20,657 nt of DNA from a bacterium (GTDB taxonomy: Bacteria; Zhuqueibacterota; Zhuqueibacteria; Oceanimicrobiales; Oceanimicrobiaceae): positions 1 through 20,657 of the forward strand of contig JBHHXN010000090.1 in assembly GCA_046757025.1 (NCBI GenBank), read 5' to 3'. Made by a program: the position numbers and the translations under genes. Each line of letters starts with the position of its first letter. The stretch's first letter is position 1. The notes under the pieces were generated by a model, which was given only the letters and a program-made list of their open reading frames with translations, ran no database searches and was not told the origin of the DNA. Positions 3,952-20,288 of this stretch are shown in pieces.

Positions 3952-4490
3952 GAATATTCTATTATCTTGAAAAACTTTGTTGTTTTAACAACCTTTTTGC
4001 GGCTCTAAGTCGGGGGTGAGGGGCAGTTGAAAGAAACTGACAACCGCGGACTTTCAGGGAAACAAAGTGACAAGCGGGATTTGGCAGAAAATATTGAATC
4101 CATTCAAACGATTCTGTTTGAACATTGAAACAAACCCACAATCTAATCCCCATAACTTTCTTTAAGTGGGTTTTGTGAATGATCTCAGCCTGGTCATGAA
4201 AGTGTGCGAAAGCAAACTGCCGCAGAAAATTCTGCTTTATGACGGGAAATTCATCCGGTAATAGGTCTCCAAAGAGCCAGAGTGTGCCGTCACGCTACTG
4301 AAACGAATTTGAGATTTTGGTACCGACCCAACCAATTGCGCTTAAGGCAAGTCAAAATAAACCCCTTCAATGGAAAATTGTGAACATGAATGACTTTGTT
4401 GATAAAGTCGAAGAATCTTTTAGCATGAGGATCGATGGAAGAATAGACTTAATCAACAGAGTCATGAAGGACCTGATGAAAAATAGCCTT

Positions 4491-4509
4491 TCCCGAACTT
4501 GTTTCGGGA
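4491..4509. repeat. Short palindrome TCCCGAA-N-TTCGGGA (related copy at 2457-2476)
   Basis: TCCCGAACTTGTTTCGGGA here and TCCCGAATTTTTTTTCGGGA at 2457-2476; both are intergenic. Confidence 0.5.
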
Positions 4510-7610: not shown

Positions 7611-8696
7611 ATGGACATCGGGATTCCGCGGGAAATTTCAATCGATGAAAATCGAGTTGCGGTTACCCCCGCCGGGGTCTACGAGCTCACCCATGAAGGC
7701 CACCGGGTGTACGTGGAAAGCGGTTGTGGAATCAACAGCGGCTTTTCGGATCAGGACTATCAAAATGTAGGTGGCGAAGTCGTCTATTCTCCTCAAGAGG
7801 TTTTTGGCCGAGCGGATACCATCATCAAGGTCGAGCCGCCCACCGAGTCGGAATGCGAAATGATGGTGGACGGACAAACCCTCTTTTCCTCTTTGCATCT
7901 GGGTATGCGCTCACCCAGGAGTTTCAATCTACTCATCAATAAGAAAATTACCGCGGTAGGCTATGAATACATGAGAACGGATGAAAATGAGCATTCCGTT
8001 TTAGACGCCATGGGGGGGATTGCCGGCGCCATGTTGCCGCAGATTGCGGGCCGCTACCTGGAGCTGCAAAATGGCGGCCGTGGAGTCCTAATCAGCGCTC
8101 AGCCTGGCATCCCTTCTGCTTCGGTGGTGATACTCGGGGCCGGCCATTTGGGAACCAGCGCCATCAAAGCATTTATTGGAATGGGCGCGCAGGTGATGGT
8201 CCTCGACCGCAATCTGGTCCGTTTGAGTAAAATTCATGATTTAACCTTCAAGCGAGCCGTAACCGCATTAGCCACTCCCTATAATATTGAGAAGTCTCTC
8301 CGATTTGCAGATGTGTTCATCGGTTGTGTGTTTATTCGAGGCGAAAAACCCCCACGATTGGTCACCAAAGACATGATCAAAGAAATGAGGAAAGGTACCG
8401 TAATCATGGATATTTCCATCGATCAAGGCGGTTGTATCGAGACTTCCCGACCAACCACACATTCCGATCCAGTCTTTGTTGAAGAGGGCGTGATTCACTA
8501 CTGCGTCCCGAATATTCCATCAGCGGTGCCGAGAACTTCCTCACACGCGCTTAGCAACGTCGTTTTTCCGTATGTCATGGAAACCGCTGAATTGGGCATT
8601 GAAAAAACCGTAGAATCGCATACCGCGCTGAATATGGGAGTTTACTTACTCAGAGGAGAATGTACAGATAAAAGAATTGAACGCATGTTTCTTTAA
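7611..8696 (+). CDS. ald: Alanine dehydrogenase family protein (divergent active site)
   Basis: IGIPRE..ENRVAVTP, LHL, GAGHLG, DISIDQGGC.ETSRPTTH and HYCVPNIP motifs; GGAG RBS. It has KVEPP instead of the canonical KVKEP. Confidence 0.85.
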   Translation: MDIGIPREISIDENRVAVTPAGVYELTHEGHRVYVESGCGINSGFSDQDYQNVGGEVVYSPQEVFGRADTIIKVEPPTESECEMMVDGQTLFSSLHLGMRSPRSFNLLINKKITAVGYEYMRTDENEHSVLDAMGGIAGAMLPQIAGRYLELQNGGRGVLISAQPGIPSASVVILGAGHLGTSAIKAFIGMGAQVMVLDRNLVRLSKIHDLTFKRAVTALATPYNIEKSLRFADVFIGCVFIRGEKPPRLVTKDMIKEMRKGTVIMDISIDQGGCIETSRPTTHSDPVFVEEGVIHYCVPNIPSAVPRTSSHALSNVVFPYVMETAELGIEKTVESHTALNMGVYLLRGECTDKRIERMFL

Positions 8697-8861
8697 CTGA
8701 TTGTTGTTTCGGTGCCAAACCGAAGATGAATGCAGTAGTGATAAATCGTCATGATGCCGTCGCAAGATGCCGCAATGCAAGCCGGAAAGCAGTTTGAACC
8801 CGTCCCAACAAAGGGAGCCGAGCATCTTGAAAATCGTGCTAAATTAATCAAAGGAGAAATC

Positions 8862-9452
8862 ATGACCGAATATCCGAAAACCGTCTCTCTTAAGGACAAC
8901 AACAAATTAACCCTGCGACTGATGCAAAATGAGGACCTGGATTTGTTGTTGTCCTTCTACCGTTCTATCCCCGAGGAAAACCGGCAATTTCTTCGCATCG
9001 ACGTCACCAACCGGGAAAACGTCGAACGCCGATTTGCGAATTTAGATCATAAACATGTCTATCCGATTTTAGCCATTGATGAGGGCAAAATCGTGGGCGT
9101 GGCCACCATGTTCAAAGCCGAGATAGGTTGGAAGCGTAACCTTGGAGAAGTGCGCCTGCTCATCGCGCCCGATTACCGTAGAAAAGGTCTGGCCACGATT
9201 TTTGTCCGCGAATTGTTTGCGCATGCTTTAAAATCCAAAATCTTAAAAATTCAAGCGGAAATGGTGGAAGATCAGGAATCAGCCATCGCGGTGTTCGAGC
9301 GCTTTGGGTTCCGAAAAGAAGCGGTATTGCGCAAGCACGTGACCGATACCCACGGACAGAGAAAAAACCTCATCATCATGACATTGGATGTGGAAGATCT
9401 CTGGCATTTGATGGAAAATCACGTGGAGGATTACGATATTCGCGGTCAATAA
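8862..9452 (+). CDS. GNAT family N-acetyltransferase
   Basis: PDYRRKGLA acetyl-CoA-binding motif and AIAVFERFGF. Start moved from 8751 to ATG 8862, which follows AAAGGAG. Confidence 0.85.
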   Translation: MTEYPKTVSLKDNNKLTLRLMQNEDLDLLLSFYRSIPEENRQFLRIDVTNRENVERRFANLDHKHVYPILAIDEGKIVGVATMFKAEIGWKRNLGEVRLLIAPDYRRKGLATIFVRELFAHALKSKILKIQAEMVEDQESAIAVFERFGFRKEAVLRKHVTDTHGQRKNLIIMTLDVEDLWHLMENHVEDYDIRGQ

Positions 9453-9497
9453 TTTTTAACAATCAGTATGACCTGAAATAATCTGATTTGAATATTT

Positions 9498-9663
9498 ATA
9501 ACTACTCAGCTATTGGCATTTAGCTGTTGGCTTTTGGCCATTGTTGATAAATTGGTTGTAAACAATGAGAGATTTTAGTAATCTGAATATTTAGTTAAGC
9601 TGATAAATAATCTTGTCTGCTAACTCATGGCCAACAGCCAAAAGTAAAAAGCTGAGTAGTTAT
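9498..9663. mobile_element. 166-bp MITE-like element with 14-bp TIRs and an 8-bp target site duplication
   Basis: ATAACTACTCAGCT (9498-9511) and AGCTGAGTAGTTAT (9650-9663) are perfect inverted repeats. GAATATTT directly flanks both sides (9490-9497, 9664-9671). Inner heptamer arrays are inverted relative to each other. Confidence 0.8.
9565..9623 (+). pseudogene. Collapsed remnant of a four-helix-bundle (23S rRNA IVP/bAvd-like) gene
   Basis: ATG 9565 gives MRDFSNLNI*, resembling the family N-terminus M-x-D/N-F-x-x-L-x-V/I-W with TGG changed to TAG. 9597-9623 gives KLINNLVC*, resembling a C-terminal helix. Heptamer repeats flank it. Confidence 0.5.
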
Positions 9664-9783
9664 GAATATTTTTAAAATAATAACTGTAAATCAAAAGTAA
9701 GAATCCCTGAATATCTGAATCAAAAATCGATCCAATTAAATGGGCAGCCTGGCTAAATTTGAATATAAAATTGGAGGTAAACC

Positions 9784-10101
9784 GTGAACTACTGGCGTAA
9801 ACCATTGGACGCAGATAAGCTGAATTTACCCAAAGGTTTGATTCACATCGTGAAAGATCAATGTAAAGGTTGTGGTTTTTGCGTTGAGTATTGTCCGAAA
9901 GAGGTATTAGAGCTCTCCGATGAATTTAATATCAAGGGCTACCACCCGCCGGTGGTGGTGCAGGAAGACGAGTGTGTCTATTGTAAACTTTGCGAGATCA
10001 TTTGTCCGGAATTCTCAATTTTTGTTACTCAGAAAAAGAGTACGGAAAAACCAGAAAAACCCGTTGCGGCGAGAAAGGAGGCGGAGAAAATTGAAAGCTA
10101 A
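9784..10101 (+). CDS. korD: 2-oxoacid:ferredoxin oxidoreductase delta subunit (2x[4Fe-4S])
   Basis: CKGCGFCVEYCP, FNIKGYHP and CVYCKLCEIICPEF motifs; GGAGG RBS before a GTG start. Confidence 0.85.
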   Translation: MNYWRKPLDADKLNLPKGLIHIVKDQCKGCGFCVEYCPKEVLELSDEFNIKGYHPPVVVQEDECVYCKLCEIICPEFSIFVTQKKSTEKPEKPVAARKEAEKIES

Positions 10102-11248
10102 ACCGAATGGCGTTTTGACCGGGTCGCACTATTTAGATGGCGACCACGCTTGTGCCGAGGGCGCGCTGGCAGCCGGCTGCCGTTTTTTTGCTGGCTATCC
10201 CATTACCCCCTCCACGGAAGTCGCCGAACGCATTGTAGCACGTTTTCCCATGGTCGGTGGTATATTCATTCAAGTTGAAGACGAACTGGGTGCCATGGCC
10301 GCGGTGCTTGGAGCGGCCTGGGCAGGCAAAAAATCCATGACCGTGACCTCCGGGCCGGGATTCTCGCTGATGATGGAGAATCTGGGGCTGGGTACCATGA
10401 TGGAAGTGCCCTGCGTACTGGTGAATGTTCAGCGCGGCGGACCTTCTACCGGTCTTCCTACCATGGTTGGTCAGGCCGATATGATGCAGGCCCGGTGGGG
10501 TTCCCACGGCGATTATGAAATCATCGCGCTGTGTCCGGCCTCGCCCCAGGAAGCGTTCGATTATACCATTAAAGCCTTTAATCTCTCGGAAAAATACCGC
10601 GTGCCCACGCTGTTGATGATGGATGAGTGCGTGGGGCACATGACCGAAAAAGTCGTGATTCCCTCTGCCGAAGAAATCAACATTTTTCCGCGCCGGCTTT
10701 CCAAGTTGCCGCCGGATGAATACCTGCCGTATGTACCCGGAAAAGACCTGGTGCCGGACATGATTACGGCGGGTGAAGGTTACAAAATTCACACCACCGG
10801 CCTCACCCACGATGAAAGAGGTTATCCGGTCATGAGTCCCGAAGTTCAAAACGAGCTGGTAAAGAGACTCATGGACAAAATCAATAAAAACGCCGACGTC
10901 ATCATCGAAATCGAAGAAGAAAACACCGACGACGCCGACGTCATCGTCATGGCTTACGGCATCACTGCACGGGTTACCCAGCCGGCTATCGCTAAAGCCA
11001 GAGAAAACGGCATCAAGGTAGGTTTTATCAAGATGATTACTGTCTGGCCGTTCCCGGAAAAACGGGTAAAGCAACTTGCTGAAAAAGTCAAAGCGTTTGT
11101 CATGCCCGAGATCAACATGGGACAGATGGTGTTGGAATTGGAACGCGTGGTTGGCGGGAGAGCAAAAACGTTTCATGTGCCGCATGCCGGCGGCTGGGTG
11201 CATGAACCAGATGACATTTACAAGGTAATTGAGGAGGCCGTAAAATGA
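10091..11248 (+). CDS. korA: 2-oxoacid:ferredoxin oxidoreductase alpha subunit
   Basis: AGYPITPSTE, QVEDE, TSGPGFSLM and QRGGPSTGLPT motifs. Start reassigned to TTG 10091 after AAGGAGGCGGAG; the extension from 9920 only overlaps korD. Confidence 0.92.
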   Translation: MKAKPNGVLTGSHYLDGDHACAEGALAAGCRFFAGYPITPSTEVAERIVARFPMVGGIFIQVEDELGAMAAVLGAAWAGKKSMTVTSGPGFSLMMENLGLGTMMEVPCVLVNVQRGGPSTGLPTMVGQADMMQARWGSHGDYEIIALCPASPQEAFDYTIKAFNLSEKYRVPTLLMMDECVGHMTEKVVIPSAEEINIFPRRLSKLPPDEYLPYVPGKDLVPDMITAGEGYKIHTTGLTHDERGYPVMSPEVQNELVKRLMDKINKNADVIIEIEEENTDDADVIVMAYGITARVTQPAIAKARENGIKVGFIKMITVWPFPEKRVKQLAEKVKAFVMPEINMGQMVLELERVVGGRAKTFHVPHAGGWVHEPDDIYKVIEEAVK

Positions 11249-12150
11249 CAACAGTTGCAGAAAAAATGAAACACGAACATCCCATGGGTGACTATTTGCG
11301 CATGGACCGAATTCCGCACATCTGGTGCCCAACCTGCGGCATCGGCACGGTGGTGACTTGTTTTGTAACCGCGCTGCAAAAATTCGATTATCCGCTGGAA
11401 AAAGTCGCCATTGTCTCGGGTATCGGTTGTACCGGCCGCGTCGCCGGCTACGTGAAATTGGATTCCTTTCACACTACCCACGGACGGGCGATTCCGTTTG
11501 CCACCGGTCTGAAGCTGGGGAATCCGGATTTGAAAGTGGTGGTGTTCAGCGGCGACGGGGATTTGTCCGCCATTGGCGGCAACCATTTGATTCATGCCGC
11601 CCGCCGCAATATGGATTTGACGGTCATTTGTGTCAATAATTTTATCTACGCCATGACCGGCGGTCAGGTGGCGCCTACCACGCCGATTACCGCCAATAGT
11701 TCTACCTCGCCGTACGGCAACTTCGAGCAGCCGTTTAACCTGCCGTCTCTGGTGGCCACCTGTGGCGCGGTGTATGTGGCCCGCTGGACCGCTTTGCATA
11801 TTCGCAGATTGACGAATTCGATTTTAGAGGCCCTGAATAAAAAGGGCTTTTCTTTTGTGGAAGCTATTTGTCCCTGTCCAACCTTGTACGCCCGAAGAAA
11901 CAAACTGGGTACCGGTCTGGACCTGATGAAATTTTATCATGACAATAGTGAAATTCAACATGGCGCGGATCCGGATTCTGTGGACATTGAATTTCAAGAT
12001 AAAATCGTCGTGGGTAAATTTATCGATCGCGAGCGCCCGACCTTTGTCGATGCCTGGAACGAGGGTCACAAAAAGAAGTTTGGAGATAAATTTCAACCGT
12101 ATGGGGGGTCCGAAAACGGCGCCCTGGCTGACGGAACGGCGAAGAAATAA
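11245..12150 (+). CDS. korB: 2-oxoacid:ferredoxin oxidoreductase beta subunit (TPP-binding)
   Basis: WCPTCG, SGIGC, HGRA, GDGD..IGGNH and NN..YAMTGGQ motifs; ATGA overlap with korA. Confidence 0.93.
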   Translation: MTTVAEKMKHEHPMGDYLRMDRIPHIWCPTCGIGTVVTCFVTALQKFDYPLEKVAIVSGIGCTGRVAGYVKLDSFHTTHGRAIPFATGLKLGNPDLKVVVFSGDGDLSAIGGNHLIHAARRNMDLTVICVNNFIYAMTGGQVAPTTPITANSSTSPYGNFEQPFNLPSLVATCGAVYVARWTALHIRRLTNSILEALNKKGFSFVEAICPCPTLYARRNKLGTGLDLMKFYHDNSEIQHGADPDSVDIEFQDKIVVGKFIDRERPTFVDAWNEGHKKKFGDKFQPYGGSENGALADGTAKK

Positions 12151-12168
12151 ATATCAGGAGTGCTTAAT

Positions 12169-12732
12169 ATGAGCAGAACAGAAATTAGAGTCACCGGTTA
12201 TGGCGGACAGGGCGTCATCCTATGTGGTTACATTATCGGTAAATCAGCCGCGCTGTTTGCAAATAAACATGCAACCTTGAACCAGAGCTTTGGGCCGGAA
12301 GCCCGCGGCAGCGCTTGCAGTGCGCAAGTGATTGTCTCGGATGAAGACGTACTTTATCCGTACATGCGCCAGCCTGACATTATGATCGCCATGTCACAGG
12401 AGGCGTATTCCAAATATGAACCCGAGTTGAAAAATGATGGTCTGTTACTTGTTGACGAGGACCTGGTGAAGCTGGGAAAAGTCAGGGACAACATTAAAAC
12501 CTATTCAGTACCCGCTACCCGAATAGCGGAGCAATTGGGTAGAAAAATTGTCTTGAATATTGTGATGCTGGGCTTTTTTACTGCCATTTCCCAGCTCATC
12601 GACGTTGAAGCCGTGCGCAAAGCCGTGCAATCATCCGTTCCCAAAGGCACCGAAGAGCTGAATTTGCGCGCGTTCGAGAGCGGCTATGAATATGGTATGG
12701 AAAAGTTGAAAAACGGAGAAAAGAAAAACTAA
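12169..12732 (+). CDS. korC: 2-oxoacid:ferredoxin oxidoreductase gamma subunit
   Basis: GYGGQG, SFGPEARG, NIVMLG and NLRAF motifs; ATG 12169 lies 8 nt after AGGAG. Confidence 0.9.
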   Translation: MSRTEIRVTGYGGQGVILCGYIIGKSAALFANKHATLNQSFGPEARGSACSAQVIVSDEDVLYPYMRQPDIMIAMSQEAYSKYEPELKNDGLLLVDEDLVKLGKVRDNIKTYSVPATRIAEQLGRKIVLNIVMLGFFTAISQLIDVEAVRKAVQSSVPKGTEELNLRAFESGYEYGMEKLKNGEKKN

Positions 12733-12769
12733 AGTTCAGTAATAAAACCATTAACCAGGGAGTTCAACC

Positions 12770-13162
12770 ATGACTGACTTGGTGAATGAAATCAGGCAAA
12801 TCGAGCAAGACATGGCCTGTGCATTTAATGACAAAGATGTGGAGAAATTCTTGAGCTTTTTCTCAGCCGATCTGGTAGGTTTTTCCTCCACTACCCACGA
12901 TAGAATTCAAGGATTAGACGCATTAAAAAAAACCTTTGAATACTATCTGCAAGAAGGGGAGAAGGTGGAATTTTCCGTGTCCAATGTCGCGGTGCAGACC
13001 TTTGGCGACGTGGCCGTCGCCAGTTTTCACTGGGTGGTGACTATCGACGATGGCAACCGTATTCATGACATCCCCGGTCGCGGCACGCACGTTTTTTACA
13101 AAAAAAACCACAAATGGCTGGTAGTGCACGAACATTTTTCTCGAGCGCATCACTACGTTTAA
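12770..13162 (+). CDS. NTF2/SnoaL-like (DUF4440-type) protein
   Basis: AFN.KD...F..FFS, GDVAVA, GRGTHVF and W.VVHEHFS patterns; AGGGAG RBS. Confidence 0.8.
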   Translation: MTDLVNEIRQIEQDMACAFNDKDVEKFLSFFSADLVGFSSTTHDRIQGLDALKKTFEYYLQEGEKVEFSVSNVAVQTFGDVAVASFHWVVTIDDGNRIHDIPGRGTHVFYKKNHKWLVVHEHFSRAHHYV

Positions 13163-13181
13163 AATTGCGGAGGTTCTAAAA

Positions 13182-15560
13182 ATGCAAAAAGGGCAAGCCA
13201 ATCCTCCAATCCAGAAAATTTTAGAAAAGAAAGAGGTCACCCTTTCCATCAACGAGCAGGTCAATCAGCAGTACACTGTGGGTAAAATCGAACCTTCCCC
13301 CTGCATGACCGCCTGCCCGGCGGGGGTCAATGTCAAATCTTATGTGTCGCTCATCGCCTCTGGCAAGTTCCACGAAGCGCTGGAAGTGGTTAGAGAGCGT
13401 AATCCATTCCCGGGCATCTGCGGACGCGTTTGTACCCACCCCTGTGAGTCGTACTGCAATCGCAACGAAGTGGATGCAGCGGTGGCGATATGTTGGCTGA
13501 AACGCTTTGTGGCCGATTACGAGCTGCAGAATCCCCCACAAAAAACCAAACCGCTGCCGCAAACCCGCAAAGAACAAATTGCCATCATCGGCTCGGGTCC
13601 GGCGGGATTGACCGCCGCTAACGATCTGATCAGAAAAGGCTTTGGCGTAACCGTGTTTGAAGCGCTGGCAGAACCGGGCGGCATGTTGACCTCAGGCATT
13701 CCATCCTTTCGGCTGCCCAGGGATGTCATTCAAACCGAAGTCAATGCCATCAAAAATTTAGGCGTTAAAATCAAAACCAACACGCGCCTGGCTGGTAAAA
13801 AGGCCATCGACGGTTTATTCGAAAAGGGCTTCAACGCGGTCTTTCTGGCGGTGGGGGCGCACAAAGGCTTGAAGCTGGGCATCCCGGGCGAAGAAAAATA
13901 CCAGGGGGTGTTGGACGGCATCTCGTTTTTAAAAGAAGTCAATGTGGGCAACCCGGTCAAGTTGGGCAAACGGGTGGCCATCATCGGCGGCGGCAATTCT
14001 GCCATCGACGCTTCCCGCACCGCCCGGCGTCTGGGCTGCGATGAAGTCACCATCGTTTACCGGCGCTCACGCGAAGAGATGCCGGCCAACGAGCTGGAAA
14101 TTCAGGAAGCGGAGCACGAAGGCGTTAAAATTCAATATCTGGCGGCGCCGGTGGAATTGGTGGGCAAAAACAAACGATTGACCGACATGGTTTGCACCAG
14201 GATGAAATTGGGCAAGCCGGATGCCAGCGGTCGCCGCCGGCCCATTGCCATCGAAGGTTCGGAATTTACCATCGAACTCGACAACGTCATCGCCGCCATC
14301 AGCCAGCAGCCGGACCTGTCTTTTCTGCCGCAAGATCACGGCATGGACATTTCCCGGTGGCATACGTTTTCAGTGGATGAATCAACGCTGGCCACTTCTC
14401 GTGAAGGCGTGTTTGCCGGGGGCGACGCCGTGACCGGGCCGAACACGGTGATCGACGCCATCGCCGCCGGGCACGTGGCGGCCCGTTCCATCGAGCGTTA
14501 TTTGAACCGCGAGCCTTTGCAACAAGAACTGACATCCGACCGACCCTACGAAACCGAGATCAAAATTGATCTCAAAAAACAGGACAAGAAAAAACGCGCG
14601 GCCATGCCCAAAATCCCGGCAAAGGATTTGACCAACAATTTCGCGGAAGTGGAGCTGGGATTCAACGAAGCCACGGCCATGGCAGAGGCCATGCGCTGTC
14701 TGCGCTGCGGCCCGTGCAGCGAGTGTTTCCTGTGTGTACCGGAATGCCAGAAAAACGTCACCGTGCTTACCACCGCCGACGACGACGGGCGCGCCGATGA
14801 AGTTCTGCTGAGGCTGCCCGCCGATTTTGACGCGGAAGAATTGAAAAATGCGCACAATCAGGGTATCTTGCATGCGGGCAAAAAAGGCGGTTTCACCGTG
14901 GAAACGCATCCGGTGAGCTGTTTTGTGAAAGAAGAAGTATGCCGCGGCTGCGGCGATTGCGTCACGGTTTGCGAATATTCGGCCGCCATTCTGCTGCCCA
15001 AAGAAAACGGGCTGTTTGTTTCAAGAATCGATGATACCATCTGCAAAGGGTGCGGCACCTGTGTTTCCATCTGTCCTTCCAGTGCCATCGAGCAAAACTA
15101 TTTCACCGACGATTGGCTGCAAAGCAAATTGCAAACCCTGACCACGGACAAAAAGAATGTGGTGGTTTTCACCTGCAACTGGTATGGTTCGCACCAGGAT
15201 CGCTCGGTTTTCGCGGAAATCGACAAAAAAGACCTGAACCTTTTGTTCATTCGTACGACTTGCTCCGGCCGCATCGAACCTTCGTATATTTTGAAGTCGT
15301 TTGAATATGGCGCGGCTGGCGTGCTGGTGGTGGGCTGCCCCATGAACAAATGCCATTACGGTTTCGGAAACAAATACGCGGATGAACATTTCGGGAGAGT
15401 GCAAAATATGTTGAACATACTCGGATTTACTTCGGAAAAATTCCAGTGGACCTGGCCGGAAGACGACCAGGTCAGGCATTTCCAAAATGCGGTAAATTTA
15501 TTTCTGGAGAGCATCCGAGTGGGAGAAGTGGTGGATAACGTTGTGGAGGTGTCAAATTAA
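13182..15560 (+). CDS. GltD/NfnB-like FAD/NAD(P)H oxidoreductase fused to a 2x[4Fe-4S] ferredoxin domain and an MvhD-like [2Fe-2S] domain
   Basis: PCMTACP, GRVCTHPCE..C, IIGSGPAG, IIGGGNSA.D, YRRS, FAGGD and EA.RCLRCG motifs; two CxxCxxCxxxC motifs; C-terminal FTCNW..CSGRI..GC....CHY; GGAGG RBS. Confidence 0.88.
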   Translation: MQKGQANPPIQKILEKKEVTLSINEQVNQQYTVGKIEPSPCMTACPAGVNVKSYVSLIASGKFHEALEVVRERNPFPGICGRVCTHPCESYCNRNEVDAAVAICWLKRFVADYELQNPPQKTKPLPQTRKEQIAIIGSGPAGLTAANDLIRKGFGVTVFEALAEPGGMLTSGIPSFRLPRDVIQTEVNAIKNLGVKIKTNTRLAGKKAIDGLFEKGFNAVFLAVGAHKGLKLGIPGEEKYQGVLDGISFLKEVNVGNPVKLGKRVAIIGGGNSAIDASRTARRLGCDEVTIVYRRSREEMPANELEIQEAEHEGVKIQYLAAPVELVGKNKRLTDMVCTRMKLGKPDASGRRRPIAIEGSEFTIELDNVIAAISQQPDLSFLPQDHGMDISRWHTFSVDESTLATSREGVFAGGDAVTGPNTVIDAIAAGHVAARSIERYLNREPLQQELTSDRPYETEIKIDLKKQDKKKRAAMPKIPAKDLTNNFAEVELGFNEATAMAEAMRCLRCGPCSECFLCVPECQKNVTVLTTADDDGRADEVLLRLPADFDAEELKNAHNQGILHAGKKGGFTVETHPVSCFVKEEVCRGCGDCVTVCEYSAAILLPKENGLFVSRIDDTICKGCGTCVSICPSSAIEQNYFTDDWLQSKLQTLTTDKKNVVVFTCNWYGSHQDRSVFAEIDKKDLNLLFIRTTCSGRIEPSYILKSFEYGAAGVLVVGCPMNKCHYGFGNKYADEHFGRVQNMLNILGFTSEKFQWTWPEDDQVRHFQNAVNLFLESIRVGEVVDNVVEVSN

Positions 15561-15565
15561 AGGAT

Positions 15566-15640
15566 TTTGCAGGCGTCCGCAAAACCGTCTCCCTTGACTA
15601 AACGAGTTAGAATTGCAATCCAACAGCGGACGCCTGTAAA
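15566..15640. repeat. 15-bp inverted repeat with a 45-nt spacer
   Basis: TTTGCAGGCGTCCGC (15566-15580) and GCGGACGCCTGTAAA (15626-15640), with one G-T pair. Confidence 0.6.
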
Positions 15641-15822
15641 TTATTTTTCGATGAATCGAAACGGCTGGAGCAATCGATTTGAAAACAATCAATAAAGCTC
15701 GTCGGTGAAGGAGGGACGTTAAGAAAGTGGACGAGCATCAACCACCGCGAGTTGTACTCTGGCAAATGAATGCCTACTCGCTGTGAAAATGTCAGCCATA
15801 CAAAAATGAGTAGAGGTGAGCT

Positions 15823-16182
15823 ATGCAAGAATATCTTGACGCCATTCACCGCCGGGTTTGTTCCTTATGTATCGACGCCATACTGGACAGCCAACAAAAC
15901 TTTATGCGATGTGGTTTGCCATCGGAGCGTTCGTGTCCCATCGAAAGCTATCTCAATCAGGTCATCGAGGTGGTACAAACTGTTGAGAGTCCCTGGATGG
16001 TCGATTATATCAACGTGGTGCGGGACAAAATTTGCGCCAATTGTGAGGAAAACGAAGAGGGGATTTGTGATTTAAGATTGAAAGCGGATTGCCCTTTGGA
16101 TCGGTATATCATGCTGGTGGCCGGCGCCATTGAAGAAGTCATGGGCCAGCGTTCGACAAATCCTGAACAGATGACCTATTAA
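15823..16182 (+). CDS. Hypothetical protein with a duplicated 4-Cys motif
   Basis: GAGGTG RBS; two repeats, Cx2Cx13Cx7CPIExYL and Cx2Cx7Cx7CPLDxYI. Confidence 0.8.
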   Translation: MQEYLDAIHRRVCSLCIDAILDSQQNFMRCGLPSERSCPIESYLNQVIEVVQTVESPWMVDYINVVRDKICANCEENEEGICDLRLKADCPLDRYIMLVAGAIEEVMGQRSTNPEQMTY

Positions 16183-16295
16183 TTTTGGACACTTGTTCAA
16201 AATAGATGCATCTGGGTGCTTGTCCATACGAATTAAATTTTCATCACAAGTCCATAACAAAGCGTTGAATTTTACTTTGAATAAAAGGAAATGAA

Positions 16296-17444
16296 ATGGC
16301 AGAGATTGCTGAAACCGTAAAAAAAACCAATGCCTCCTTCTGTTTGGAGTGCGGTAAATGCTCGGCGGCCTGCCCGGTGGCACAGGTCAATGACAGCTAC
16401 TCCCCGAGAAGAATGGTGTCGCATTCTTTGCAGCAGTCAAGCGACGATGTGGTGTTCGACCCCATGCTCTGGGCTTGTTTGACCTGCAAAAATTGCGAAG
16501 CCGGCTGCCCGGCTGACGTGGATTACAGCACGCTCACTCTGGGAATTCGTTCCCAGGCCAAGCAGGTGGGGCAGACCGCCCTGTGCTCACACGGCGGCGC
16601 CCTGCAATCGCTCATGCGCATCATGACCGCACCCGACCTCAATCAGCAAAGATTAAATTGGGTGAACGACGATCTGAAAATTGCGCAGGAGGGAGAGGTG
16701 CTGTACTTTGTGGGCTGTGCGCCTTATTTCGATGCGTTTTTCGCGGATCTGGGTGTGCGCACTCTCGATGCATCAAAGAGCGTGGTCAAGCTTTTGAACA
16801 ACGTGGGCATCGAACCGGTGTTGATGGCAGATGAACGATGCTGCGGACACGACCTGCTGTGGAGCGGCGATGAAGAAAATTTCAAAAAACTGGCTCAGAA
16901 AAATATCGAGACCATCCAAAAGACCGGCGCCAAAAAAGTGGTGTTTTCCTGCCCGGAATGTTACCGCACCCTGCAGGAAGATTATCCCGCGCACTTCGGC
17001 GCCCTGGGTTTCGATTCGTTTCACATCTCGGAGTTCATCTCGGATAAATTGCAATCGAAAGAAGTCATGTTTCCCACTAACAACCGCGATCTGCAGGCGA
17101 CTTTTCAGGACCCATGCCGGCTTGGTCGCCATCTCGGGGTGTATGAGGCGCCGCGGCAGGTGCTGTCCAATTTGCCGGGGGTTACATTTAATGAGATGCC
17201 TAAAAATAGCCAGAGAGCGGTTTGCTGCGGGGTGAGCAATTGGATGAACTGCACGACTTTTTCCAAACAGATTCAGGTGCAACGGCTGCGCCAGGCCAAG
17301 GCCACTGGCGCCGACACCCTGATCACGGCCTGTCCCAAATGTGAAATTCATTTTCGATGCGCCATGAAAGATCAAAATCTGGGTGCGGAAATCACCATGG
17401 ATATCAAAAACATTGCGACCATTGCAGCAGAATCTTTACCCTGA
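16296..17444 (+). CDS. HdrD-like Fe-S oxidoreductase (HdrC-like 2x[4Fe-4S] plus two CCG domains)
   Basis: CLECGKCSAACP and CLTCKNCEAGCP; YFVGC..CCG..CPEC and QDPC..CCG..CPKC; AAGGA RBS. Confidence 0.88.
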   Translation: MAEIAETVKKTNASFCLECGKCSAACPVAQVNDSYSPRRMVSHSLQQSSDDVVFDPMLWACLTCKNCEAGCPADVDYSTLTLGIRSQAKQVGQTALCSHGGALQSLMRIMTAPDLNQQRLNWVNDDLKIAQEGEVLYFVGCAPYFDAFFADLGVRTLDASKSVVKLLNNVGIEPVLMADERCCGHDLLWSGDEENFKKLAQKNIETIQKTGAKKVVFSCPECYRTLQEDYPAHFGALGFDSFHISEFISDKLQSKEVMFPTNNRDLQATFQDPCRLGRHLGVYEAPRQVLSNLPGVTFNEMPKNSQRAVCCGVSNWMNCTTFSKQIQVQRLRQAKATGADTLITACPKCEIHFRCAMKDQNLGAEITMDIKNIATIAAESLP

Positions 17445-17473
17445 AATGGGCGTTATTAAATTTTCAACAAAAC

Positions 17474-17739
17474 GTAACTATTCAGGTGTCACTCCTGCGA
17501 ATGCAGGAGTCTCCCGATTCAATGGCAATAAGTGAGAAAAGAATTCATAGCGTTCAATCAAGTAAAAACATGTTCAGGTAGAGGAATTATGGAAACATAC
17601 TGCGTGTACATGAGGGCAAATCAACATAATAACGAGCTTACATCAGTGTCACGAACAATCTTTTTCCACAATTGTTTAAATGGATGTCAAAGGAGATTCC
17701 TGCATTCGCAGGAATGACAGCTCTGTGCTGAATAGTTAC
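17474..17739. mobile_element. 266-bp MITE-like element with 12-bp TIRs enclosing a pair of REP-like hairpins
   Basis: GTAACTATTCAG (17474-85) and CTGAATAGTTAC (17728-39) are perfect inverted repeats. Inner 28-bp inverted palindromes lie at 17487-17514 and 17692-17719. The flanking 8-mers AACAAAAC and CAAAAAAC match at 6 of 8 positions. Confidence 0.75.
17589..17662 (+). pseudogene. N-terminal remnant of a GIY-YIG nuclease gene
   Basis: ATG 17589 gives METYCVYMRANQHNNEL; a -1 shift at about 17639 continues YISVTNNL. This matches the Y-x-V-Y-I...LYIGVTNNL signature with a G-to-S change. The rest of the gene is missing. Confidence 0.65.
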
Positions 17740-17819
17740 CAAAAAACTTAATAAATGTATGCAATTTCTTTCGTTTCAAAATGGCGTAAATAATGAACTA
17801 ATAAATGGAGGCGAATGAT

Positions 17820-20288
17820 ATGACTGGCACCAACACGGACCAGGATATCCGAATCGGTGTTTTTGTGTGTGACTGCGGCTTGAACATCGCCGGGGTAGTT
17901 GATACCCAGGCGGTAGCCGAATACGCTAAAACTCTGAAAAACGTGGTGGCGGTGGTACGCAATAAATACACTTGCGCGGACCCCGGACAAAATGAAATCA
18001 AAAAAGCCATTGCCGAATACAACCTCAATCGAGTGGTGGTGGCTTCCTGTACCCCCAAGATTCACGAGCACACTTTTCGGCACTGTGTGGAAGACGCGGG
18101 TATGAACCCCTATCTCATGGAAATGGCCAATATCCGTGAGCACTGTAGCTGGGTGCATCAAACCGAAAAAGCCGCGGCCACCGAGAAGGCCATGAATTTA
18201 GTGCGCAGCGCGGTTTTCAGAGCGCAGCTTTTGGAACCGCAGGTGGAGCCGGTATTTCCAGTGACTCAGGCGGCGCTGATCATCGGCGGCGGCGTCGCCG
18301 GCATTCAGGCCGCCCTGGACACCGCGGACGCGGGTCATCAGGTCTATCTGGTGGAAAAGGAACCGTCCATCGGCGGCATCATGGCGGCCATCGACAAGAC
18401 CTACCCCACCATGGACTGCAGTATATGAATTCTCGGTCCGAAAATGATGGATGTCGGTCGGCATCCCAAGATTAAGCTTCTCACCAACAGTGAAATAGAA
18501 AATGTCACCGGATTCGTTGGTAACTTCAAAGTCACGGTGCGCAAAAAAGCCCGGTATGTTGACGAAAATGAATGTACCGCCTGTGGTGACTGTGAAACCG
18601 TGTGTCCGGTGGCGGTAGTCGATGAGTACCAGCAGGGCTTTTCTTCCCGCAAAGCCATTTACATCCCCTTCCCACAGGCCGTGCCTTCTTCCTACATTTT
18701 GGACATGGACAACTGCCTGGGTACCAACCCCATTGCCTGCGGAAAATGTGCCGAGGCCTGTGAGAAAAAGTGTATCGATTACGACGTACAGGATGAGTTC
18801 ATCGACCTGGAAGTCGGCACGGTTATCGTGGCCACGGGCATGCAGCCGTACGATCCCACGGAAATGGACGAATACGGTTACCGTAAATTTGAAAATGTCA
18901 TCACCAGTATGGAGTTTGAGCGCTTGATCTGCGCCGGCGGTCCCACCGAAGGTCATTTCTTTCGACCGACAGATAGAAAGACGCCAAAAAGCGTGGCGTT
19001 TGTGCAGTGTGTAGGCTCGCGCTCATTGAACCGTGGTGTGCCGTACTGCAGCAATATTTGTTGTATGAACACCGTGAAGGATACCTTGCTTCTGCACGAT
19101 CACTATCCCGACCTGCAGAGCAAAGTATTTTATATGGACATCCGCTCGTTTGGCAAGGGCTTTGAAGATCTTTACCGTCGAAGCAAAGAAAGCGGCGTGC
19201 AGTACATTCGCGGACTGCCCGGCGAAATCGAGGAAGATCCCATCACCAAAAATCTGATCCTGACGGTGGAGAATACCCTCGAAGGCCGGCTTGAAAAGCA
19301 CGAAGTGGATATGGTGGTGCTGGCTGTGGGGCTGATTCCGCGGGTGGACAGCCAGTTCATTCGCCAACTGTTGACGCTGTCGAAAACCTCCGACGGTTTC
19401 GTCATGGAAGCGCACCCCAAGCTGAAGCCGGTGGACGCTCCCACCAAAGGCGTCTATTTCGCCGGTTGTGTGGAAGCGCCCAAGGACATCAAGGACAGCG
19501 TGACCCAGGCCAGCGCGGCGGTGGCGCGCTCCAGCATTCTACTCAATGCCGGTGAAGTGAAAATCGAAGCCATCACCTCGATTATCAACGAAGATATGTG
19601 CAATTTCTGCGGCCGCTGTGTGCGCGTGTGTCCGTTTCACGCGGTGACGCCCACCAGTAAAAAGGAGAACATTTTTCCAAAGATCATCGAGGCGGCTTGT
19701 GCCGGCTGCGGTACCTGCGCAGCAGAGTGTACCACCGATGCCATCAGCATGCGGCACTTTAACGATGCCCAGTACTACGCCCAGATCGACGCGATTCTCG
19801 AAGATCGACCGATGGATAAAATCGTGACCTTTGCCTGCAACTGGTGTTCCTATGCCGGCGGCGATAATGCCGGAACTTCGCGTTTACAATATCCACCTAA
19901 TGTCCGCTTAATTCGCACCATGTGCAGCGGCCGGGTGGACGAAGATTTTATCCTGCACGCATTCAAAAAAGGCGCTCCCATCGTGCTGGTTTCTGGCTGT
20001 CATTTTTCGGATTGCCATTATATCGACGCCGTTACCTGGACGCAGCAACGGGTGGAAAAACTCTGGGATAAATTGGAAAAGATGGGCATTCGGCCTGAGC
20101 GTTTGCAGTTGGAGTGGATCAGCGCCGCCGAAGGCCAGAAATTTGCCCGGGTCATGCGGGAAGTGGAGCAATTGCGGCTGCAGGTCACACCGGAAGAAGT
20201 GCAATTTACCATGAGTGTTTTGAGCAACGGCAAAATGTCACAAAAGAAAAAACCAGCTAAAAAGGAGGTTTTGGAGGTGATCAACTAA
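17820..20288 (+). CDS. hdrA: Selenocysteine-containing heterodisulfide reductase subunit A fused to MvhD (822 aa, Sec at TGA 18426-18428)
   Basis: ORFs 17805-18428 and 18444-20288 are in one frame and read KTYPTMDCSI-U-ILGPKM across the TGA, at the conserved HdrA CxxC position. Other motifs: CDCG.NIAG, NIREHCSWVH, GGGVAG, QCVGSR..YCS.ICC, and C-terminal FACNWCSY/MCSGRV/GCH..DCHY/WISAAEG. ATG 17820 lies 8 nt after GGAGG. Confidence 0.92.
18449..18466 (+). promoter_or_regulatory. Bacterial SECIS element
   Basis: GGATGTC-GGTC-GGCATCC forms a 7-bp stem with a G-led GGUC loop, 27 nt after the in-frame UGA. Confidence 0.8.

Follow-up and report, generated by a model that had tools for sequence, protein, structure and literature searches.

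Introduction

The ISBst12 group of IS66 insertion sequences includes ISDge4 of Deinococcus geothermalis, a single-open-reading-frame (ORF) element caught transposing, with ends GTGACTACTCAGCA and GTAACTGCTCAGCA and an 8-bp repeat (PMC12898284). Insertion sequences that target repetitive extragenic palindromic (REP) sequences are likewise known (PMC1525189). CGTC-type hairpin repeats 'apparently lack a dedicated transposase', and their mode of spread is stated as open (PMC3733652); the role of the Ssn nucleases outside Neisseria is stated as unknown (PMC11893778). For these and the other papers cited, statements refer to the sections covered here. We describe two intergenic elements on contig JBHHXN010000090.1, the whole 20,657-nt stretch being referred to as the window: element 1 (166 bp, positions 9498-9663) and element 2 (266 bp, positions 17474-17739). 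Both are very probably old, non-autonomous miniature elements with ISBst12-type ends of 12-14 bp; inside, they retain what deletions have left of two unrelated gene cassettes flanked by repeats, and an IS66 transposase acting in trans likely copied them into AT-rich gaps between genes. The identity of the ends, the 8-bp duplications just outside them, the nature of both interiors, the existence of free cassettes and the loss of coding capacity are established directly.

Results

The ends of both elements are IS66 terminal repeats of the ISBst12 group

Element 1 is located in the gap separating a GNAT gene from a 4Fe-4S ferredoxin-like (korD-type) gene, and element 2 in the one separating a CCG-domain hdrD-like gene from an hdrA-like gene (korD, hdrD and hdrA are names inferred from Pfam domains); in both cases the neighboring genes are co-oriented. 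Coordinates and sequences of the two were verified, as was the original prediction that they share near-identical inverted termini, and no other inverted repeat of the window is as strong as these two. In element 2 the terminal 12-mer GTAACTATTCAG occupies 17474-17485 on the plus strand and 17728-17739 on the minus strand. Element 1 bears ATAACTACTCAG, two changes away from GTAACTATTCAG and starting with ATAA in both arms, at 9498-9509 (plus strand) and 9652-9663 (minus strand), and is bounded by identical copies of the octamer GAATATTT at 9490-9497 and 9664-9671 (8/8 match).

These ends, which are inverted and follow the GTAA(C)T..TCAG pattern of the IS66/ISBst12 group, are the terminal repeat of single-gene IS66 elements, a family assignment that the original prediction had left blank. 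Locus L008, located in a genome of the same family by a PF03050 search of 61 genomes, encodes a single-ORF transposase of ~500 amino acids (aa) bounded by GTAACTATTCAG and GTTACTATTCAG, with the DUF6444, zf-IS66 and DDE_Tnp_IS66 domain set (PF20042/PF13005/PF03050) and an NF033517 match above cut-off. Among 80 loci holding relatives of this transposase, with end pairs counted when 1.3-2.3 kb apart, a matching pair was present at 48, with 37 of the 48 exact at each end. Perfect 8-bp duplications surround 22 of the 48 full-length pairs, spread over 7 genomes with a single genome contributing 15 of the 22, and perfect 7- or 9-bp duplications surround none of the 48. Loci L008, L123, L173, L187, L385 and L386 hold full-length single-ORF elements with this same end sequence. 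In 28 of the 48 full-length copies (loci L031-L110) the stop codon of the transposase gene falls within the terminal repeat. Neither element 1 nor element 2 contains a DDE_Tnp_IS66 ORF and none was found in the assembly, so that both are classed as IS66 derivatives and not as IS66 members. A full-length, transposase-bearing copy, which the original prediction had proposed to look for, thus exists in other genomes and was not found in the element-bearing assembly.

End pairs with 8-bp duplications are numerous in the same genome

The assembly that contains the window (5.96 Mb in 374 contigs, 95% complete) holds 35 exact copies of GTAACTATTCAG compared with 0.35 expected under a fifth-order Markov model. 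When mismatches in the ends are tolerated, 35 inward-facing pairs are obtained, a set that includes one locus (C13) twice and a likely chance pair within a gene (C224). The elements so defined measure 54-1700 bp, and neighboring ends (≤1 mismatch, ≤800 bp apart) face inward in 21 of 22 cases. Perfect 8-bp duplications flank 8 of the 35 pairs and duplications with at most one mismatch 17, against maxima of 0 and 3, respectively, in 20,000 permutations of the flanks. The mean flank match peaks at 8 bp, where it reaches 0.74 compared with 0.32-0.49 at the other lengths from 4 to 11 bp. The scan therefore yielded the further end pairs and the enrichment of 8-bp duplications that had been anticipated. 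Placement in AT-rich gaps between genes was borne out as well, as the insertion flanks have a GC content of 27% compared with 47% for the genome, and 33 of the 35 pairs have no edge inside a long ORF. The proposal that both ends of an element vary together holds for element 1, whose two changes are present in both arms; element 2 equals the consensus, and across the 35 pairs only 6 arm deviations are shared by both arms, whereas 49 are not.

The interiors are remnants of two unrelated repeat-flanked cassettes

Element 1 is a deleted four-helix-bundle/heptamer cassette. A degenerate heptamer array (CTATTGG, CATTTAG, CTGTTGG, CTTTTGG and so on) at 9510-9544 on the plus strand forms its left arm and agrees with the C92 copy's left end at 82 of 93 positions. 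It is followed on the same strand by the 5' remnant of the gene at 9565-9592 and by the 3' remnant at 9601-9651, which continues into the right heptamer array; over 9601-9662 the sequence agrees with the C51 copy's 3' end at 51 of 62 positions. DNA alignments with longer copies from the same genome show that a TIGR02436/PF05635 gene has been reduced to its first ~9 codons (MRDFSNLNI) and its last ~10. Profile searches with the longer copies gave E values of 1.5e-29 (TIGR02436) and 8e-29 (PF05635), and the C51 copy scores 102 and 100 bits against cut-offs of 24 and 33.8, respectively.

Element 2 is a deleted Ssn-family GIY-YIG/hairpin cassette. Its left SRM/NTS-like hairpin, TGTCACTCCTGCGAATGCAGGAGTCTCC, spans 17487-17514 on the plus strand, and its right one, TGTCATTCCTGCGAATGCAGGAATCTCC, lies at 17692-17719 on the minus strand and fits the NTS consensus at 22 of 28 positions. 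The published SRM pattern has zero exact matches in the window and fits the left hairpin only with 2 mismatches; hairpins of this type deviate from it by one compensated stem pair. Between the hairpins, positions 17589-17669 (plus strand) carry the 5' remnant of the gene, comprising the first ~27 codons of a PF01541 reading frame. The element corresponds to a ~197-bp deletion of a 463-bp form, with 178/196 (C28 copy) and 65/68 identical positions on the two sides. The gene of the C129 copy matches PF01541 (E 4.8e-9) and shares 39% identity over 90 aa (pairwise E 4e-27) with a Neisseria gonorrhoeae GIY-YIG homolog that is surrounded by exact NTS repeats, and the gene of the 463-bp form therefore belongs with the Ssn single-strand nucleases (PMC11893778). 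This E value lies below the threshold used in that work for SsnA homology (tblastn E < 1e-10), with the N. gonorrhoeae homolog taken as reference in place of the Neisseria meningitidis protein.

Both elements fold back on themselves strongly, with z about -5.5 to -5.8 (-5.45 and -5.76 for the pair) and none of 200 shuffles per element as stable. The alignments with longer copies verified the small decayed genes of the original prediction, a four-helix bundle in one element and GIY-YIG in the other, and likewise its collapse by internal deletion, seen in the ~197 bp missing from element 2 and in element 1 keeping nothing but the ends of its gene.

One end type encloses at least five interior families

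Sorted by similarity, the 35 pairs form groups that do not overlap, with five or more unrelated interior families under one end type, in line with what the two window copies had suggested. These are a GIY-YIG/hairpin group including a 135-bp gene-less form (11 pairs), 183-bp hairpin doublets (9 pairs), 123-bp hairpin doublets (6 pairs), the four-helix-bundle/heptamer group (3 pairs) and a GxxExxY-like group (3 rows at 2 loci; PF13366 above and TIGR04256 below cut-off), besides 3 singletons. Between families only the terminal 12-14 bp are common, without a shared inner site, and left/right chimeras of two families were not found among the 35 pairs. It would seem that ISBst12-type transposases can act on very short ends.

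A GTCA-hairpin start adjoins the end in 20 of 25 elements of this genome compared with 0 of 32 distinct full IS66 copies, and elsewhere in 12 of 13 (genome G007), 4 of 6 (genome G046) and 5 of 24 (metagenome contigs) cases. We also considered the interiors as deletion remnants of IS66 itself and rejected this: comparison with the insides of 49 full IS66 copies gave no match for any short-element interior, none of the 32 distinct copies has a hairpin start beside the end, and no IS66-derived sequence was detected in the elements beyond the short ends.

Each of the two cassette types is also found without IS66 ends. C173 carries an intact Ssn-like gene together with hairpins, C16 and C294 carry full-length four-helix-bundle frames accompanied by other heptamers, and close Ssn homologs in the related genomes G053, G008 and G027 have no IS66 ends either. 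The C173 gene and its hairpin doublets (L333, G000:C173:8900-10500, G000 denoting the window's assembly) lie amid genes resembling a type I restriction-modification locus, and a Planktothrix Ssn homolog lies between MmeI and DISARM drmA genes.

Within IS66 ends, in contrast, every module gene inspected in the window's genome is broken by stops, frameshifts or insertions, and most copies are gene-less; neither window element retains an intact passenger gene, both being gutted. Four GIY-YIG copies (C28:34307, C129, C34 and C109) have one premature TAA in common, among them the C28 and C129 copies, which are 97% identical and occupy different sites; a fifth copy lacks this stop and is broken elsewhere. 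Identity within families ranges from 69 to 97%, which points to old activity, and the window copies are old, broken and probably functionless. An identical 33-bp palindrome is inserted in several decayed four-helix-bundle copies (C14, C92 and C1). One four-helix-bundle element (L111, G000:C51:10051-11747, 1697 bp) has IS66 ends, a perfect duplication and a secondarily inserted, intact T5orf172-domain gene, whose following tail we take to resemble an integron attC site. The IS66-ended Ssn element recurs in G059, a genome of another family (L341, L360-L367), with 83% identity over 318 bp, which suggests horizontal spread or an old shared origin.

Other end types and distribution beyond the genome

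Enclosure of hairpins is not special to IS66. At least seven other miniature-element end types with 2-39 pairs each exist in the same genome, among them GTGTCCATCCGTAA (39 pairs), GCCTGTGTGAAAA (29), GTGTCTGAACGAAAA (26), CGGYTATCCARTT (26) and GTGATTGACCGAAAA (25); many of these elements enclose similar hairpins, and some are nested in one another or in IS66-ended elements. Out of 437 hairpin starts, 37 adjoin an IS66 end, 107 one of five other end types and 293 none of those tested (70, 37, 17, 12, 6 and 2 for the six end types).

Beyond this genome, the exact 12-mer was found in 35 of 61 related genomes with up to 136 copies, compared with 0-2 for the reversed control. A metagenome scan returned at least 119 stretches containing it; 44 of these have a partner end within 2 kb, 22 of the 44 with a perfect 8-bp duplication and 3 being full IS66 copies. 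In the single-end pattern searches, 30 loci were taken from 136 matches and from 83 matches. Clustering of 69 elements from four sources, chosen by duplication score, gave 36 clusters. Several metagenome elements are AT-rich and contain no hairpin, so ordinary deletion-type MITEs (miniature transposable elements with inverted repeats) are probably mixed in. The 12-bp end marks an apparently uncatalogued, widespread MITE class.

Helper transposase, empty sites and observations against mobilization by IS66

Several observations weigh against the view of the elements as captured, decayed cassettes mobilized by an IS66 transposase in trans. Target duplications are often imperfect: the flanks of element 2, AACAAAAC (17466-17473) and CAAAAAAC (17740-17747), agree at only 6 of 8 positions, 18 of the 35 pairs (including the doubly counted C13 locus and the likely chance C224 pair) have at least two mismatches, and the L008 copy itself has no target duplication. 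The 8-bp duplication is thus perfect in element 1 and partial in element 2, while at the level of the genome the 8 perfect cases stand against none in the permutations. Searches of the window's assembly retrieved no PF03050 or NF033517 match and no helper by tblastn, and five other repeat-rich genomes contained no close relative of the L008 transposase; all six are incomplete drafts, in which repeats often fail to assemble. The sole tblastn match, at the end of C354 (30% identity over 128 aa), was rejected as a helper, being an N-terminal fragment without the end sequence in the upstream stretch read. No exact empty site was found when contigs of four runs from one study were compared with window positions 8000-19500 and with the C129 copy, and clean removal of an element was absent from the joints listed (15 of 32 in one comparison and 3 of 3 in another), contigs of this kind dropping rare variants and being uninformative either way. 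The full IS66 copies compared come from other organisms, which makes non-matching interiors weak evidence for the AT-rich elements. Finally, a gene fragment next to the IS66-type end of the G059 copy is still open, and the cargo is accordingly not dead everywhere.

In a Pfam scan of 38 of 109 candidate ORFs beside ends, three were full IS66 transposases and one a GxxExxY-type fragment, the remainder being unrelated genes of the host. Where both genes were found, 5/5 other GNAT-korD junctions and 13/13 other hdrD-hdrA-like junctions lack the ends, all of them from other genera or paralogs with spacers too diverged to align, and this absence fits lineage-specific insertion.

Other features of the window

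The hdrA-like gene contains an in-frame TGA at 18426-18428 (..MDCSI*ILGPK..) that joins the ORFs 17805-18428 and 18444-20288 and that we take to be likely selenocysteine, as in some HdrA proteins. A 28-nt inverted pair with 89% complementarity, at 2515-2542 and 4464-4491, lies on either side of the citrate synthase gene.

Discussion

The ends and the duplications together suggest that the elements were likely mobilized in trans, which agrees with the original view of non-autonomous elements served by a DDE transposase. Each interior family would likely go back to a capture event of its own, a pre-existing module having inserted into an IS66 copy or taken the place of its inside so that only the short ends were left. 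Candidates for such captured modules are the Ssn gene between hairpins, the four-helix-bundle gene between heptamer arrays, the GxxExxY-like gene between short repeats and the gene-less hairpin doublet; the known targeting of REP sequences by insertion sequences could bring capture partners together. The captured unit would subsequently have been amplified as a family of its own through a helper transposase, now probably lost or else unassembled, with a cargo gene that is likely dispensable for movement and that would decay via point mutation and internal deletion.

The original prediction saw in these elements a dedicated cargo system, a carrier with fixed ends that swaps interchangeable repeat-plus-gene modules and is kept for delivering their genes. 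Such a carrier would account for at least five interior families on one end type in a single genome, for the 36 clusters formed by the 69 elements and for the intact T5orf172-domain gene gained by the C51 element. What the families have in common is nevertheless limited to ~12-14 bases without a common inner site, the disjoint groups yield zero left/right chimeras in 35 pairs, the cargo genes inspected in this genome are broken and most copies have none, and five or more further end types enclose hairpins of the same kinds. This part of the prediction was not upheld, and we regard a dedicated system as improbable.

Somewhat less probable still is that the inner module moves by itself, for instance through the Ssn single-strand nuclease and its hairpins, the IS66 ends being incidental leftovers of a site once hit. 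Free hairpin-gene-hairpin and heptamer-gene-heptamer units do exist, Chenal et al. likened the NTS-ssnA-NTS layout to a mobile element (PMC11893778), and self-mobility may well account for the first capture. It does not readily explain why, at many unrelated sites, 8-bp duplications immediately border the IS66 ends, why copies that carry one shared stop codon have spread, or why gene-less families have the same duplications. Retention by the host as transcript hairpins or terminators within operons, to which the strong fold-back, the intergenic position of nearly all pairs and the co-oriented neighbors of both window copies might point, is very improbable, because selection against gene disruption alone predicts the intergenic placement, the ends are missing from the other junctions of both gene pairs (0/5 and 0/13), the copies are degenerating, and retention concerns the keeping of elements and not their origin.

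We thus favor capture of repeat-flanked cassettes between IS66 ends followed by amplification in trans. IS66 ends around what is left of unrelated repeat-flanked cassettes imply that ordinary transposases likely spread hairpin and heptamer repeats as passengers. Hairpins inside units with the duplication signature of an identified insertion sequence group provide a concrete carrier for CGTC/SRM-type repeats, and the elements may explain how hairpin repeats without a transposase of their own spread. More tentatively, and with a little less than even confidence, we propose that selfish modules flanked by repeats (Ssn/SRM, four-helix-bundle/heptamer and GxxExxY-like) are captured time and again, and by preference, between short ends that belong to ordinary DDE insertion sequences (here IS66, besides several other end types), and that this mixing and matching of outer ends and inner modules is a main route by which transposase-less hairpin and heptamer repeats multiply in bacterial genomes. 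New here are the assignment of the insertion sequence family with controls, the pattern of many interiors on one end and many ends on one hairpin, and the link to the spread of CGTC-type repeats. In the literature searched, which did not extend to ISfinder, subscription reviews or supplements, elements with IS66 ends around Ssn, four-helix-bundle or GxxExxY modules are not described; how the repeats are classified could be affected by the supplements of PMC11893778 and PMC3733652.

Compared with known systems, the elements resemble ISDge4 of the IS66/ISBst12 group in their terminal repeat (GTAACTATTCAG versus GTAACTGCTCAG / GTGACTACTCAG) and their 8-bp direct repeat (PMC12898284), but that group consists of autonomous elements of ~1.5-1.8 kb with a transposase, which the 54-1700-bp elements described here lack. 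Four-helix-bundle genes of the TIGR02436/PF05635 family are those of 23S rRNA intervening-sequence proteins, and heptamers flank both free and IS66-ended copies; unlike the intervening sequences, element 1 lies outside rRNA, is gutted and sits within IS66 ends. As in Ssn with its NTS/SRM repeats (Chenal et al. 2025, PMC11893778), a single-domain GIY-YIG gene of ~95 aa was placed between two GTCA-initiated hairpins, whereas here the gene is broken, the hairpins are 2 mismatches off SRM and the unit lies within IS66 ends, which the sections covered of that paper do not mention. The short xGTC-tagged hairpins in intergenic doublets recall the CGTC-tagged REPs of Di Nocera et al. 2013 (PMC3733652). 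Bacterial MITEs, mobile insertion cassettes and the Tn3-derived TIMEs (PMC4133298) are likewise small, multicopy and non-autonomous, with ends like those of insertion sequences, direct repeats, fold-back and in some cases foreign DNA; they differ in that, here, one end type encloses many unrelated interiors within one genome, derived from other repeat-flanked modules and not from the parent element. Being small and multicopy, with such ends and direct repeats and without a transposase, the elements work like a MITE or mobile insertion cassette of the IS66 family, and are neither autonomous IS66 elements nor functional passenger cassettes.

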